From an uncultured Gammaproteobacteria bacterium (GTDB taxonomy: Bacteria > Patescibacteriota > Patescibacteriia > Magasanikbacterales > UBA922): 64,000 nucleotides of DNA. Within the stretch, counting starts at the first letter, position 1. Each line of letters opens with the position of its first letter. The translations under genes were made by a program, and so were the position numbers. The notes beneath the pieces were generated by a model. The model had not been told where the DNA came from. It saw only the letters and a list, made by a program, of their open reading frames with translations, and did no database searches. Positions 13,868 through 54,211 of this stretch are shown one piece after another. The stretch lies in NCBI GenBank assembly GCA_964597575.1, contig CAZQXB010000001.1:64964-128963 (forward strand), in the 5' to 3' direction.

Positions 13868-14001
13868 GGGACTCGAACCGAAAGGGTTTGGGAAAACTGT
13901 TTGGCGGTTTTCCCACCTCGTGCAGGGGGATGGTTGGGAAGGGGTGGAAACCTCTTCCCAAGAGGAGTGGGGCGACGAGTGAGATGTCCCCGCCCGCGGC
14001 A
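13868..14001 (+). repeat. tRNA-trailer structured element E1: inverted T-arm copy, two hairpins, direct copy of the tRNA-Leu 3' end
   Basis: Starts GGGACTCGAACC, the reverse complement of the tRNA-Leu T-arm GGTTCGAGTCCC. Ends GTCCCCGCCCGCGGCA, a copy of the tRNA 3' end. Internal hairpins GGGAAAAC..GTTTTCCC and GGAAGGGG-tggaaa-CCTCTTCC (with a G.U). Followed by its own terminator at 14004-14044. Confidence 0.5.
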
Positions 14002-14098
14002 CGAATAAAAATAACTCCTACATGTAGGGGTTATTTTTATTCGTGCAGAATGTGGGACGAAGTTAGAGTTTTCATTTTAGAATTAGACTAGCAGTCTA

Positions 14099-39407: not shown

Positions 39408-41123
39408 ATGAATTCTCTTTTTTTAGAACTCAGTGGCATTCTTGGGCTCACGGTCGTTGTCTCATTTATTATTCGACTCCTCCGACAACCACTCATCGTT
39501 GCATATATTATTTCTGGCCTTCTGGCTGGCCCACTTCTTTTTAACCTTCTTGACGGAGATGCACACACCTATAGCGCATTCGGAGAATTTGGCGTCGTCC
39601 TTCTTCTGTATGTCGTCGGCCTCAACCTCCATTTTGATTTTCTCAAAAGAATTGGCAAAAGCGCGGTTCTGATTGGAGTGGGGCAAGTGGCGCTATCGAC
39701 CCTGCTTGGATTTGGCATTCTTTCTTTTTTTCCACTCACGACAAGCAGTAAATGGTACCTAGCTATTGCTGTCACATTTTCGAGCACCATTATTTTAACC
39801 AAACTTTTGGCCGAAAAAAAGGATACGGAATCCATGTATGGCCGCCGAACAATGGGGCTTATGGTGGTGCAGGATCTTATTGCGGTCGCACTCATGGTTA
39901 TCCTCTCGAGCGGTACCGAGGGAAACATTACAGAAACGATCGGACTTCTTTTGTTTAAGGGGGCACTTCTTATTGCTTCCATTTATTTCTTGGCAAAGTT
40001 TCTTTTGCCGACAATTCTTGATCGCGTGGCCAAAAATGGAGAATTTTTATTTCTTTTCACCATTGCTTGGTGTTTTGGCGTGGCGAGCTTAGTCGCTTGG
40101 GCAGGCTTCTCTCTTGAAATCGGCGCGCTTTTAGCTGGCATCTCGCTTGGCTCATCGCCGTATCAAGCAGAAATAGCAAGCCGTATCCGCCCACTTCGTG
40201 ATTTTTTTATCGTCATCTTCTTTCTCATGCTCGGAAGTGAAATGCATGTGACTGGCTTAGCCACAGCCCTGCCAATCGGGCTTGCCCTTACCGCCGTGGT
40301 TCTTATCGGGCACCCACTTATTTTATATCTCCTCTACCGAACTCAAGCATGCACACGGCGCACGAGTTTTTTAGGAGCAACTGTTGCAGCACAAGTAAGC
40401 GAGTTTGGTTTTATTCTTTTATTCACCGGGCGCTCACTGGGGCATCTTCAAGGTATTGAGCTCCAAATTTTTACAGTCGTAGCCCTCATTACCATTTGCA
40501 TTTCTTCCTACATTATTACCTACAATGAACAGCTCTATCGCTTTTGCCTGCCATTCTTTGCGCTATTTGGAAAAGATAAGTATCGCAATCACCCAGAAAT
40601 AATTCCAACCTACGAAGCGTGGGTGTTTGGGTATCATCGGGTCGGTATGCGTATTTGTTCAGCTCTTCAGGAAAAAGGGGTACCGTTTGCAGTGGTCGAC
40701 TTTAACCCGGACTCTATTCGCCATGCACGGCAAAATGGCATTCCAGCGTATTTCGGTGATGCGGCTGACGTAGAGTTTTTACACGAACTCCCTATTGAGG
40801 TCGCAAAACTTGTTATCTCCACACTCCCTGAAACAGACGATCAAAAAACTCTTATTCATCATGTCAGAAGTCGGAGTAGTAAAACAAAGGTTATTGCAAA
40901 CACCTACGACACGGCTGCGACCGAAGAACTCTACACTGCTGGGGCACATTACGTACTTGTCCCTCATTTGGTTGGGGGAGCATGGATGGCTCACATTCTT
41001 GAAGAAAAGGCCTGGACAGACCGAACATTCCTTAAGCTAAAAGAGGACCAAAAAAGCGAACTAGCAAGACGCTTTACTGACAGGGGAATACTGAGGCACA
41101 CACGCCTTGACAAGCATGCGTAA
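39408..41123 (+). CDS. CPA2-family cation:proton antiporter (Kef-type) with C-terminal RCK/TrkA-N domain
   Basis: About 12 TM helices followed by a Rossmann-type domain (FAVVDFNPDSIRHARQNGIPAYFGDAAD). Confidence 0.85.
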   Translation: MNSLFLELSGILGLTVVVSFIIRLLRQPLIVAYIISGLLAGPLLFNLLDGDAHTYSAFGEFGVVLLLYVVGLNLHFDFLKRIGKSAVLIGVGQVALSTLLGFGILSFFPLTTSSKWYLAIAVTFSSTIILTKLLAEKKDTESMYGRRTMGLMVVQDLIAVALMVILSSGTEGNITETIGLLLFKGALLIASIYFLAKFLLPTILDRVAKNGEFLFLFTIAWCFGVASLVAWAGFSLEIGALLAGISLGSSPYQAEIASRIRPLRDFFIVIFFLMLGSEMHVTGLATALPIGLALTAVVLIGHPLILYLLYRTQACTRRTSFLGATVAAQVSEFGFILLFTGRSLGHLQGIELQIFTVVALITICISSYIITYNEQLYRFCLPFFALFGKDKYRNHPEIIPTYEAWVFGYHRVGMRICSALQEKGVPFAVVDFNPDSIRHARQNGIPAYFGDAADVEFLHELPIEVAKLVISTLPETDDQKTLIHHVRSRSSKTKVIANTYDTAATEELYTAGAHYVLVPHLVGGAWMAHILEEKAWTDRTFLKLKEDQKSELARRFTDRGILRHTRLDKHA

Positions 41124-41135
41124 CGTTGGTATACT
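41107..41135 (+). promoter_or_regulatory. tRNA-Ala promoter TTGACA-N17-TATACT (inside the 3' end of the antiporter gene)
   Basis: Perfect hexamers about 22 nt upstream of tRNA-Ala. Confidence 0.5.
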
Positions 41136-41157
41136 CGTGTCATTGTGGAAAATATAT

Positions 41158-41230
41158 GGGCCGGTAGCTTAGTTGGTAGAGCGCCTCGTTTGCACCGAGG
41201 AGGTCGGGGGTTCGATTCCTCTCCGGTCCA
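41158..41230 (+). tRNA. tRNA-Ala (anticodon TGC)
   Basis: GGGCCGG acceptor with G3.U70 identity pair. Anticodon loop TTTGCAC. T-loop TTCGATT. Discriminator A. CCA not encoded. Confidence 0.9.
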
Positions 41231-41235
41231 CGAAA

Positions 41236-41268
41236 AATGCTACGCCTTCGTGGCGTAGTGTTTTTTAG
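41236..41268 (+). terminator. terminator after tRNA-Ala
   Basis: CTACGCC-ttcgt-GGCGTAG followed by TGTTTTTT. Confidence 0.55.
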
Positions 41269-41282
41269 AAAAAAATACCGTT

Positions 41283-41357
<75 letters not shown>

Positions 41358-41406
41358 TAAAATAAGTACTCTCCCTTGTGGGGAGTATTTATTTTATTCG
41401 TGTTAC

Positions 41407-41541
41407 GGCCAGGATTGAACTAAGGGAAAGTTTGAAAACCGATAGGTTTTCACTTCTGCTAGGGGAAGGTTAGGAAGGGGTGGAAACCCCTTCCTAAGAG
41501 TCTGAATTTTATTCAGAGGAGTGAAATCCTGGCCCGCGGCA
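41407..41541 (+). repeat. tRNA-trailer structured element E2 (tRNA-Phe): inverted T-arm copy, two hairpins, direct 3'-end copy
   Basis: Starts GGCCAGGATTGAACT, the exact reverse complement of tRNA-Phe AGTTCAATCCTGGCC. Ends ATCCTGGCCCGCGGCA, a copy of the tRNA 3' end. Hairpins GAAAACC-gata-GGTTTTC and GGAAGGGG-tggaaa-CCCCTTCC. Own terminator at 41545-41578. Confidence 0.5.
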
Positions 41542-41616
41542 CTGACAAACAAGACTGTTACGGTCTTGTTTTGTTTTACGGAAAAGAAGCTTGTAAACAG
41601 AAAGGGGGCTTGCCCC

Positions 41617-41645
41617 TTGAAATAAATTTGGATATCATATATACT
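41617..41645 (+). promoter_or_regulatory. tRNA-Pro promoter TTGAAA-N17-TATACT
   Basis: Hexamers with 17-nt spacer about 15 nt upstream of tRNA-Pro. Confidence 0.45.
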
Positions 41646-41660
41646 CCCTGCAGTAAAAAA

Positions 41661-41734
41661 CGGGCTGTGGCTCAATTGGCTAGAGTGCCTGGTTTGGGAC
41701 CAGGAGGTTGTGGGTTCAAGTCCCACCAGCCCGA
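41661..41734 (+). tRNA. tRNA-Pro (anticodon TGG)
   Basis: C1-G72 first pair (CGGGCTG/CAGCCCG) typical of bacterial tRNA-Pro. Anticodon loop TTTGGGA with G37. T-arm GTGGGTTCAAGTCCCAC. Confidence 0.85.
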
Positions 41735-41790
41735 CACAATAAATAAGTCCTTCTTAACCGAGAGGGACTTATTTATTTTTTTTGGATTGA

Positions 41791-41901
41791 GGACTTGAAC
41801 CCAGAAGGGGGTCGGGGAAACAGTTGCTTCCCCGTGGCGGATTCTTGAAACCGAGGGGTTTCAAAAGGAGCGAAGCGACGTGTGAAAGTCCCCAGCCCGA
41901 C
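41791..41901 (+). repeat. tRNA-trailer structured element E3 (tRNA-Pro, proximal copy)
   Basis: Starts GGACTTGAACCC (reverse complement of the tRNA-Pro T-arm). 66-nt core 41801-41866 matches 54048-54113 with only 2 mismatches. Ends AGTCCCCAGCCCGAC (copy of the tRNA 3' end). Own terminator at 41908-41940. Confidence 0.5.
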
Positions 41902-41979
41902 TAACATAAAACTTCTCTTGCGAGAAGTTTTATATTTTATTTGGAGAGCCGAGCGACCTAATAGTTTAGGTCTCGAGTA

Positions 41980-42098
41980 GGACTTGAACGCCGGAGCGAT
42001 GTTTTGCGAACACGTTGGTGAGCAAAACCACGAGGCGATGGCCAGCCCGAGGAGGAGGAAACCGACAGGGGCAAGACCAAGGACCACAGAGCCCGACA
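41980..42098 (+). repeat. tRNA-trailer structured element E4 (tRNA-Pro, distal copy)
   Basis: Starts GGACTTGAACG. Internal hairpin GTTTTGC..GCAAAAC. Ends CAGAGCCCGACA followed by AGATAAATAAGTCCTTCT, matching the tRNA-Pro 3' end plus the 5' half of its terminator. Confidence 0.45.
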
Positions 42099-42318
42099 AG
42101 ATAAATAAGTCCTTCTCATTGAGGAGGAGGCTTATTTATCTTGTTGAATTGAGAGCTTTGAATCGGAATAAGGAGGGCGAAATAGTTGTTTGGTTTTAAA
42201 CTCTTACAAAAGGGAAATTCTTGCCGGACATGTCTGTGATTTATCTATCCACATCTTCGTTGGAAAAGGCATACTTATGAAGTACACTAAATAAAAGTTC
42301 ATTTTAGCATTCGTTTCT

Positions 42319-54035: not shown

Positions 54036-54159
54036 GTGGGAATTGAACCAGAAGGGGGTCGGGGAAACAGTTGTTTCCCCGTGGCGGATTATTGAAACCG
54101 AGGGGTTTCAAAACGCAGCGAACGAAGTGGGCGAGTAGTGAAATTACCCACCCGTACCT
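54036..54159 (+). repeat. tRNA-trailer structured element E5 (tRNA-Cys); core near-identical to E3
   Basis: Starts GTGGGAATTGAACC, the exact reverse complement of tRNA-Cys GGTTCAATTCCCAC. Core 54048-54113 matches 41801-41866. Ends AATTACCCACCCGTACCT, then CAAATATAAAA and a new hairpin, mirroring the tRNA-Cys 3' flank. Confidence 0.5.
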
Positions 54160-54211
54160 CAAATATAAAAGAGAGCTTCAAGCTCTCTTTTATATTTGGT
54201 CTCGAGGGTCG

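Follow-up and report, generated by a model that had tools for sequence, protein, structure and literature searches.

Why should the 3′ end of a tRNA gene be present more than once in the few hundred nucleotides (nt) that follow it, each time at the end of a small unit without coding content? This question is raised by the region behind the tRNA-Pro(TGG) gene in a 64,000-nt stretch of contig CAZQXB010000001.1 (hereafter the window, 44.8% G+C), from the ~0.9-Mb genome of an uncultured member of the Patescibacteria, Magasanikbacteria-like by the homologues of a Na+/H+ exchanger encoded beside the region. Two units, which we call E3 and E4, lie there in tandem, and a first-pass annotation had attributed them to repeated integration at one attachment (att) site. 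We consider it rather probable that E3, E4 and at least two fragments beside them are successive insertions of small (~100-140 nt) non-coding, structured repeat elements that are specific to Patescibacteria, the copying mechanism being one that we infer. The units are probably a new non-autonomous mobile structured element, copied through target-templated synthesis, and the family to which they belong is apparently undescribed so far.

Units behind the tRNA-Pro gene

The segment copied by both units, named X in the following, runs from the T-loop to the 3′ end of tRNA-Pro, starting from the G at ~41712. E3 and E4 are ~110-130 nt in length and have no coding content. That each of them terminates with a copy of the 3′ end of tRNA-Pro, and that only the distal one, E4, continues into the flank of the gene, had already been stated in the first-pass annotation, and both statements were borne out. 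Precisely, on the + strand AGCCCGAC is present in three copies in a 370-nt stretch (at 41728, 41894 and 42090), and the 16-mer ATAAATAAGTCCTTCT is present on the + strand of the window in exactly two copies, at 41739 and 42101 (chance expectation 0.01), the direct repeat of E4 running on into AGATAAATAAGTCCTTCT. The 3′ arm of E3 is a copy of AAGTCCCACCAGCCCGAC of tRNA-Pro, from the T-loop up to and including the discriminator base; in the copy, GTGA replaces GTTC and 2 nt are deleted.

A feature that had been missed is that each unit also starts with the reverse complement of the T-arm of tRNA-Pro. Both units are opened by AGGACTTGAAC (41790-41800 in E3 and 41979-41989 in E4), which in the window is found at these two unit starts only (chance expectation 0.10). 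In E3 the exact match of this 5′ arm to the tRNA is 13 nt long, versus 4.2 nt in shuffled sequences, and the 5′ arm pairs with the 3′ arm of the same unit, giving a helix that we call P1.

To see how far this arrangement extends, the 400 nt behind every tRNA gene of the window were read for the same architecture. Elements are found behind four of the nine genes (tRNA-Leu, tRNA-Phe, tRNA-Pro and tRNA-Cys), and none behind tRNA-Arg, tRNA-Ala, tRNA-Met and both tRNA-Gly genes, hence the pattern described at tRNA-Pro is present there and is not special to it. In all cases the tRNA is followed by a terminator, a short spacer, the reverse complement of the T-loop and T-stem of the same tRNA, and a hairpin core of ~80-100 nt; after the core there are GTGA(A/G)A, the T-stem 3′ strand of the same tRNA, its acceptor 3′ strand, the discriminator base and a second terminator, the unit being 110-140 nt in size. 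An acceptor-stem-like helix, built with the spacer upstream of the 5′ arm, was considered and rejected, as that spacer is the decayed outer part of the inverted copy. R1, a covariance model of the element core, has exactly four matches in the window, all of them behind tRNAs (80.4, 74.1, 30.0 and 18.3 bits).

The cores of E3 and of the tRNA-Cys element, 12 kb from each other, are almost identical (type B), and the arms of each match its own tRNA; the cores behind tRNA-Leu and tRNA-Phe represent a second subtype, type A. In the core of E3 the joiner CAGAAGGGGGTC is followed by hairpin 1 (GGGGAAAC/GCTTCCCC), by the joiner GTGGCGGATTC, by hairpin 2 (TTGAAACC-GAGG-GGTTTCAA) and by AAGGAGCGAAGCGACGT. 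The core of E4 is not matched by R1 even at E ≤ 10 in a scan of the window; its hairpin GTTTTGC/GCAAAAC and a joiner ending in GGCGATGG are recognisable as type A, and its hairpin 2 is disrupted.

The claim that each unit brings a different terminator hairpin did not hold. The terminator of E4 is a diverged copy of terminator A, the one that belongs to tRNA-Pro, and the terminator of E3 may, in a by-eye comparison, be a strongly diverged copy of it as well, both ending in ...TTTGGA. Terminator A is kept in the alignment with the related contig L023, and it is considered older than E3 because of this conservation. As for the two units in tandem, both are present, and the stack is longer than had been described. 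The stretch at 41943-41972, which contains at 41943-41957 a sequence like the 3′ end of a core, is probably the remnant of a further element copy, the resemblance being judged by eye. A second fragment, at 42153-42193, is like the 5′ part of an element and is not present in L023.

Table 1. Positions, in the window, of the features behind tRNA-Pro and of the other members of the family.
Feature	Position	Strand	Basis or content
tRNA-Pro(TGG), intact target gene	41661-41735	+	ARAGORN; Rfam tRNA model, 69.8 bits
Terminator A of tRNA-Pro	41738-41783	+	18-bp A/T-flanked hairpin, then T8; terminator scan
E3, whole unit	41791-41901	+	
E3 5′ arm	41791-41803	+	13-nt exact reverse complement of tRNA-Pro 41711-41723 (TGGGTTCAAGTCC); inverted repeat
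E3 core, type B	41802-41881	+	R1 match at 41802-41870, 74.1 bits, E=1e-17; both hairpins covary
E3 3′ arm and direct repeat	41882-41901	+	GTGAAAGTCC-CCAGCCCGAC; tRNA-Pro copy
Terminator after E3	41904-41942	+	12-bp hairpin and T-rich tail; terminator scan
Core-end-like fragment and small hairpin	41943-41972	+	GGAGAGCCGAGCGAC (41943-41957), like core 3′ end GGAGCGAAGCGAC; hairpin GACCTAA/TTAGGTC; by eye
E4, whole unit	41977-42098	+	
E4 5′ arm GTAGGACTTGAAC	41977-41989	+	Reverse complement of tRNA-Pro GTTCAAGTCC(CAC); inverted repeat
E4 core, decayed	41990-42077	+	Fold z=-2.5; alignment to the L023 tRNA-Pro element
E4 direct repeat of tRNA-Pro 3′ end	42078-42098	+	CAAGGACCACAGAGCCCGACA; T-stem part diverged
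E4 terminator	42099-42145	+	Diverged copy of terminator A; common ATAAATAAGTCCTTCT ... CTTATTTAT
Decayed 5′-like element fragment	42153-42193	+	GAGCTTTGAATC GGAATAAGGAGGGCG AAATAGTTGTTTGG compared with TTGAAC CAGAAGGGGGTCGGGGAAACAGTTG; by eye, below R1 threshold
Element behind tRNA-Phe, type A	41407-41542	+	Fold z=-6.3; R1 18.3 bits; inverted and direct repeats
tRNA-Phe element, 5′ arm	41407-41420	+	
tRNA-Phe element, core	41421-41520	+	
tRNA-Phe element, 3′ arm/repeat	41521-41542	+	
Element behind tRNA-Leu, type A	13868-14002	+	R1 30.0 bits
Element behind tRNA-Cys, type B	54036-54170	+	R1 80.4 bits; 14-nt exact arm

The order of the insertions could be read from relatives, in which the tRNA-Ala/Phe/Pro cluster behind a Na+/H+ exchanger gene is conserved. 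Comparison of these homologous loci, which the first-pass annotation had proposed as a check, indicated that the units are not always present with the same junctions. In L024 and L027 (exchanger 58% identical) the three tRNA genes are without any element, while in L023 (exchanger 76% identical) tRNA-Phe and tRNA-Pro are each followed by one element, that of tRNA-Pro being of type A, with a downstream terminator that is a copy of the tRNA-Pro terminator; behind tRNA-Pro, where L023 has this one element, the window has two units plus fragments. From empty sites in the distant relatives, through a single element in L023, to two units and fragments in the window, the loci support serial insertion of separate units behind tRNA-Pro, as had been proposed. 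E4 and the tRNA-Pro element of L023 have in common the type-A joiner (...GATGG), the arm and the terminator copy. We considered E4 as the older, distal unit and E3 as the newer, proximal one because E4 is decayed and L023-like, and E3 is intact and adjoins the tRNA. The earlier view that the older copy is outermost and has the longer copy of the flank is supported by the decayed core and terminator copy of E4 and by the fresh core of E3; a reading of the graded flank match as an attR that retained the original flank was abandoned, as the gradation rather reflects the extent of the target duplication and the age of the copy.

Layout, targets and core of the family

Every well-preserved copy that we retrieved has one layout, that is X, rc(X1..n), core and X′, where X stands for the last 20-95 nt of a gene, X′ for its second copy, and rc(X1..n) for the first 6-24 nt of X in reverse complement, a segment that pairs with the start of X′ to give P1. 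The gene survives because the upstream copy of X stays intact. For tRNA and transfer-messenger RNA (tmRNA) targets, X extends from G53 of the T-loop to past the 3′ end, often through the terminator. In most copies the repeat of the tRNA 3′ end starts at the 3′ arm, and it sometimes reaches into the terminator; a terminator follows most copies. In L016 the core starts directly after the tRNA 3′ end.

The orientation is strictly that of the tRNA. A same-strand tRNA or tmRNA gene ends ≤120 nt upstream of 51 of the 77 copies considered, an opposite-strand one upstream of none, and in an earlier census of 71 cores the upstream genes included 18 tRNA species and tmRNA. From G53 (GTTCRA...) of the upstream tRNA, the 5′ arm matches the reverse complement exactly over 11.8 nt on average and 20 nt at most, with 4.8 nt in shuffled sequences. 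Protein-coding genes are used in the same way. At the gyrB end (L038) an exact repeat of 85 nt is combined with a 17-nt inverted copy of its first bases, and at the clpP end (L084) the exact repeat is 62 nt and the inverted copy 9 nt; a similar layout is present at protein genes in L097, L148 and L074. In L002 the repeat corresponds to the last 18 codons of a gene, and in L018 to the first 20 codons of a gene like that of elongation factor G (EF-G), on the other strand.

The context is different in L005, L049, L085 and L098, in which the end of the core (…CGACG) coincides exactly with the first base of a tRNA located downstream (Ala, Met or Arg), for example between tRNA-Ile and tRNA-Ala, with no obvious P1 or direct repeat; this context is unexplained by the rule given above. 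Elements were also seen behind tmRNA genes next to smpB (L011:7037-7301, L010, L138 and L009), and in L138 the 5′ arm fits the resident tmRNA and the 3′ arm a different tmRNA allele.

The family was sized in three ways. A 20-mer from hairpin 2 gave matches in 20 genome contigs, nearly all of them from Patescibacteria, a gapped core pattern matched more than 120 metagenome contigs, about half of which were genuine, and R1 found 87 copies in the retrieved Patescibacteria loci. The hosts include at least Saccharibacteria, Paceibacteria, Magasanikbacteria, Yanofskybacteria and Liptonbacteria. In viral contigs, scans gave zero matches or GC-rich look-alikes of 21-23 bits, which we rejected as family members, and with a consensus element BLAST gave nothing in annotated phages and plasmids. 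Rfam searches returned no family for the element (at gathering thresholds in the window, at E ≤ 10 in 41100-42300 and at E ≤ 1 in eight related loci), and the matches obtained were to tRNAs and tmRNA only, plus one sub-threshold match to the permuted-tmRNA model. The literature, searched also by sequence motifs and with incomplete coverage, gave no description of such an element.

The core, only ~70-100 nt long, is conserved as a structure. In hairpins 1 and 2, 97.4% of the cells are paired and 9 of the 13 pairs covary; compensatory (double) changes number 113, versus 27.7 in shuffles, and none of 500 shuffles was as high. The arms of P1, which closes a three- or four-way junction, are 29% identical between copies and yet 92% paired, a value that falls to 46% when the arms are swapped between copies (34 distinct copies). 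Hairpins 1 and 2 and P1 are therefore the helices supported by compensatory change across diverged copies. Two more hairpins, a third one and one that is optional and lies in the second joiner, are of variable length (nothing to ~40 nt), with conserved flanks. The joiners GGGAAAGGGGTC, CCGTGGCGGAAGTA and GGAGCGAAGCGACG are purine-rich and conserved across phyla. In the copies of the tRNA type, P1 holds TYGAAC/GTGARA, including a tandem G.A pair and a Y-R pair that covaries, and one subfamily keeps GTTCGA rather than GTGARA. On the + strand there are GNRA-like loops and the tandem G.A. In the arms, G.U prevailed over A.C by 39 to 6 in a count whose scoring was biased, and an unbiased recount gave 4 C>T versus 6 G>A.

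To look for a partner protein, the open reading frames (ORFs) within 3 kb of the elements in 67 loci were compared all against all. No recurrent protein was found, and the ORFs that did recur next to elements were spurious ones overlapping the element itself. Small GIY-YIG-type ORFs are present within 3 kb of the element in four loci (L067, L069, L086 and L106), and a large serine-recombinase-like ORF (L125:425-2101) lies a few kb from one; both are too rare as partners and may be other mobile genes of the same neighbourhoods.

Copying mechanism and alternative explanations

A mechanism that would account for this layout can be outlined as follows. As the core encodes nothing, it would be mobilised in trans. 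The target copies would be templated by the target during insertion, because they are perfect in young insertions and different for every target. A polymerase primed at a point p of the target (G53 of the T-loop, in the case of tRNAs) would copy the core and would then run on along the adjacent target strand, in a copy-back jump that would write rc(X1..n); such a jump is conceivable since the folded core brings its two ends together at the junction. X (from p to i) would be duplicated by a join at a second point, i, past the end of the gene, made either through a staggered break or by a small circular copy that recombines within X. There is a tendency for i to lie behind a terminator or exactly where a gene ends, which might be due to selection, if only the insertions leaving the upstream gene copy whole survive, or else to the use of transcript 3′ ends. 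That each new copy lands beside the gene and pushes the older ones outward, with the graded series behind tRNA-Pro as the outcome, is supported by the data given above. The most economical version would involve an RNA intermediate and a reverse transcriptase, with either target-primed copying or a small circular complementary DNA that integrates by homologous recombination within X. The strict co-orientation with tRNAs and the RNA-like features of the core, both read from sequence, favour such an intermediate and a reverse transcriptase.

Several observations weigh against this explanation. No reverse transcriptase or other mobilising enzyme was identified: among the 25 Pfam families listed, of 78 for the 51 ORFs of the window, there are housekeeping families and no reverse transcriptase, and the genes of the window look housekeeping to that extent. 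In most tRNA copies the 3′ arm has GTGARA, where the target has GTTCRA, which simple copying of the target does not explain. The differences between X and its second copy in L002, L018 and L074 are mainly at synonymous sites, a divergence that calls for an additional event, for instance import from another lineage or replacement of the allele. The terminator of E3 is no obvious copy of terminator A. The tRNA-Phe element is at the same site in L023, with compensatory changes in its hairpins, which also fits a function for the host. Finally, no near-identical pair of filled and empty sites was recovered, so that the exact pre-insertion sequence is a deduced one; relatives with a ClpP of 94% amino-acid identity are without the element of L084, and they are too diverged to define the junction base by base.

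One alternative is that the units are small-RNA genes of the host, working with the neighbouring tRNA as a decoy, chaperone, processing or stability element, or antisense/anti-antisense switch, with the 5′ arm pairing with the tRNA T-arm or with its own 3′ arm; they would have spread by local duplication and gene conversion, with mobility being secondary. We regard this as unlikely. It would agree with a core structure and joiners conserved across phyla, with the exclusively same-strand position relative to the tRNA, with a tRNA-Phe element that two species have kept at the same site, with the terminator that most copies have after them, and with a 5′ arm that is perfectly complementary to the real tRNA and not to its own 3′ arm. 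However, the same core and flank layout at the ends of protein genes (gyrB, clpP, the EF-G-like gene) leaves a tRNA-linked role without sense, elements accompany only four of the nine tRNAs of the window and are missing behind the same tRNAs in relatives, decayed copies such as E4 are tolerated, and every element of the window is preceded by a strong terminator and has no promoter-like site upstream. Less probable still is that the core acts as a small self-cleaving ribozyme or as a signal for RNA processing that sets the ends of the tRNA, of the mRNA or of its own RNA, a function that would be compatible with mobility. Ribozymes like that of hepatitis delta virus (HDV) flank phage tRNAs, and the compact three- or four-way junction, the invariant purine-rich joiners and the tandem G.A next to the junction would suit a ribozyme, as would cores placed directly after a tRNA 3′ end (L016) or ending at the next tRNA 5′ end (L005, L049, L085). 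Against it, no Rfam ribozyme family is matched even at E ≤ 10, terminators lie between the tRNA and the unit in this window, and the mapping of a hammerhead by hand fails: the hammerhead requires an unpaired H17 and an invariant A14, and the Y/R position covaries here as a base pair.

Two further alternatives appear very improbable. If integrase-borne islands or prophages had integrated serially at an attB in tRNA-Pro, attL and attR could have been left behind after later deletion of the cargo, and repeated integration at one att site was in fact the explanation given in the first-pass annotation. Tyrosine integrases usually leave as their signature direct repeats of a tRNA 3′ end that begin in the T-loop, tandem accretion is known for such elements, and the two gene-end copies in each of L002, L018 and L074 differ at synonymous sites as if one of them came from another lineage. 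This explanation is largely refuted by the units themselves: every copy is a tiny, non-coding one of ~100-140 nt with the same covarying core, the targets are dozens of unrelated sequences, the repeat length goes from 20 to 95 nt, an inverted target copy, which an integrase crossover does not produce, is always present, and no integrase is found beside the 67 loci surveyed apart from the one serine-recombinase-like ORF of L125. In the other alternative nothing was inserted: the 3′ region of tRNA-Pro would have been duplicated locally in tandem, or have undergone unequal crossing-over, and the copies would then have diverged. The direct repeats around each unit permit unequal crossing-over, and in L117, where three copies lie behind tRNA-Gly, the whole unit is repeated, including a 60-nt spacer; tandem stacks are also present in L016 and L035. 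For E3 and E4 such a duplication is already contradicted by the type B core of E3 (74 bits) beside the undetectable type-A-like core of E4, by the near identity of the former to the tRNA-Cys copy, and by the empty sites in relatives, although it is still a valid way to amplify existing copies.

Insertion of a mobile element thus remains the explanation that we prefer, and it can be carried further in a tentative form. We consider it possible, with a probability well below even, that the units are a protein-free mobile bacterial RNA element, an analogue of short interspersed nuclear elements (SINEs) or even a self-inserting or guide-like RNA, which would home to the universal T-loop motif GTTCRA through its TYGAAC box, would write direct and inverted copies of the target by target-templated copy-back synthesis, and would persist in the tiny genomes of Patescibacteria since the gene on which it lands is never broken.

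If confirmed, the units would represent an undescribed class of mobile or structured element, and an abundant one, with four model-detected copies plus decayed ones in 64 kb. Their insertion signature combines a long target duplication with a target-derived inverted arm that closes a conserved junction, and to our knowledge no known transposase, integrase or intron mechanism yields it. Such a signature would imply an unrecognised copying pathway, possibly a bacterial retroposition whose enzyme is not encoded by the element, or else a new RNA function linked to tRNAs. In practice, the elements interrupt metagenome assemblies at tRNA loci, their pseudo-tRNA 3′ ends and false att repeats may be mis-annotated as borders of prophages or islands, and they would offer a clean marker for strain- and lineage-level history in organisms that cannot be cultured.

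Comparison with known systems and other observations at the loci

The integrative elements of tRNA and tmRNA genes, including the integrase-less cis-mobilizable elements (CIMEs) derived from tyrosine-integrase islands, are the closest in their effect on the target: the 3′ part from the T-loop is used, the duplicated 3′ end keeps the gene intact, and CIMEs and tyrosine-integrase islands build tandem stacks in which older copies are distal. The direct repeats of the target 3′ end are thus common to both. The units differ in their size of 100-140 nt, in having unrelated targets that include protein-gene ends, in the variable repeat length and in the target-derived inverted arm, and in place of arm-type protein-binding sites they have a conserved, covarying, RNA-like core. 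An assignment to integrative elements was rejected because no recombinase gene accompanies the units in the 67 loci apart from the serine-recombinase-like ORF of L125, and because one att core per family is not compatible with 18 tRNA species, tmRNA and protein-gene ends.

MITEs, or miniature inverted-repeat transposable elements, likewise are small and non-coding, are multi-copy and non-autonomous, and have inverted termini able to fold. Their inverted repeats, however, are part of the element and do not differ from copy to copy, and their target duplication is short and of fixed length; the target-derived arms, only 29% identical between copies, and duplications of ~20-95 nt led us to reject this assignment. 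Retroposition of SINEs by long interspersed nuclear elements (LINEs) is similar in that a non-autonomous, structured, RNA-like unit is flanked by a target duplication of variable length, in that the junctions are best explained by template jumps of a polymerase, and in the strict co-orientation with transcribed genes. The variable-length duplication around a non-coding unit is thus present here, whereas an A-rich tail and an internal promoter are absent, and an inverted target copy on the 5′ side is not a feature of SINEs. We know of no SINE-like element of this kind described in bacteria.

Group II introns, those of class C in particular, and group I introns also have an inner segment that pairs with the flanking exon (P1 here, compared with the exon- and intron-binding sites, EBS/IBS, or with P1/P10), and class C introns prefer, like these units, sites just behind terminator hairpins. 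The units have no intron domains, are 5-20 times smaller, duplicate the flank rather than splitting it, and have a pairing segment of up to 24 nt that is matched to each new target; with a core of ~70-100 nt and no Rfam intron match at E ≤ 10 in the region or in the eight related loci, an intron was rejected. In retrons the structured msr-msd RNA is closed by an end stem of arbitrary sequence (a1/a2), as the core is here by P1. Retrons, unlike the units, are single-copy defence loci with an adjacent reverse transcriptase, no target duplication and no link to tRNA ends, and they were rejected as no reverse transcriptase adjoins the elements in the 67 loci.

The tRNA-like domain of tmRNA and the tRNA-like structures of viruses have, as here, a 3′ part made of the T-arm and acceptor 3′ strands. 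The 5′ box of the element (GGAUUCGAAC GGGA) presumably resembles the tmRNA 5′ region (GGAUUCGAC GGGA), and the permuted-tmRNA model of Rfam weakly spans the tmRNA 3′ end and the element in L011 (33.3 bits, threshold 47). In the units, by contrast, the acceptor stem is incomplete, the T-loop is mostly altered (GTGARA), and the 3′ part varies with the neighbouring gene and can be a fragment of a protein gene.

Other candidates were rejected as well. Known ribozymes (hammerhead, HDV-like, twister, hatchet, pistol and hairpin) have no Rfam match, and the hammerhead core could not be mapped. In diversity-generating retroelements (DGRs) the repeats differ only at template adenines and a reverse transcriptase/Avd pair is adjacent; here L038 and L084 have repeats without any difference over 62-85 nt, the differences in L002 include C/T and A/T in both directions (by eye), and there is no adjacent reverse transcriptase. 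The attC sites of integrons have R′′/R′ boxes RYYYAAC ... GTTRRRY and lie in arrays beside an integron integrase. The tRNA-type ends of the elements (TYGAAC ... GTTCRA or GTGARA) deviate from that consensus and are target-derived, the protein-gene copies are without such ends, and neither arrays of ORF cassettes nor IntI were found. Readings of the core as a K-turn, a primer-binding site or a hairpin ribozyme were dropped by hand, each for a specific mismatch.

Short-read metagenome assemblies break repeatedly at the element loci, as expected for dispersed repeats. Contigs of this organism and of its relatives (L021, L022, L025, L026 and L028) end within ~80-190 nt past the Na+/H+ exchanger gene, at the cluster of tRNAs and elements, which suggests that the element repeats systematically fragment Patescibacteria assemblies. 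Some element contigs (L007, L015 and L023, all CAZYEQ01; L001; L005) carry the labels 'Gammaproteobacteria', 'Parabacteroides' or 'Bathyarchaeia' in their metagenome-assembled genomes; these look like binning or taxonomy errors, since CAZYEQ01 agrees with this Patescibacteria window in gene content as well as in synteny.

Sigma-70-like promoters were noted before tRNA-Ala (41107-41135, TTGACA-17-TATACT) and before tRNA-Pro (41617-41645, TTGAAA-17-TATACT). For the response regulator encoded downstream, the exact protein is not on record. Downstream of clpP, contigs with identical ClpP (L166, L167, L169 and L170 versus L168) differ by a ~130-nt segment before the next gene, the longer version having a long hairpin and a repeated CGTAATAATTCGTAATTCGTA tract; this segment is intergenic and unrelated to the element. 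Finally, between tRNA-Ala and tRNA-Phe of L027 (4376-4455) ARAGORN reported an odd tRNA-like gene ('tRNA-???', with the 4-base anticodon gtcc), whose 3′ half (GGTCAGGAGTTCGAATCTCCTCGGGTCCACCA) is identical to that of the neighbouring tRNA-Ala, pointing to a partial duplication of a tRNA 3′ end without an element core.

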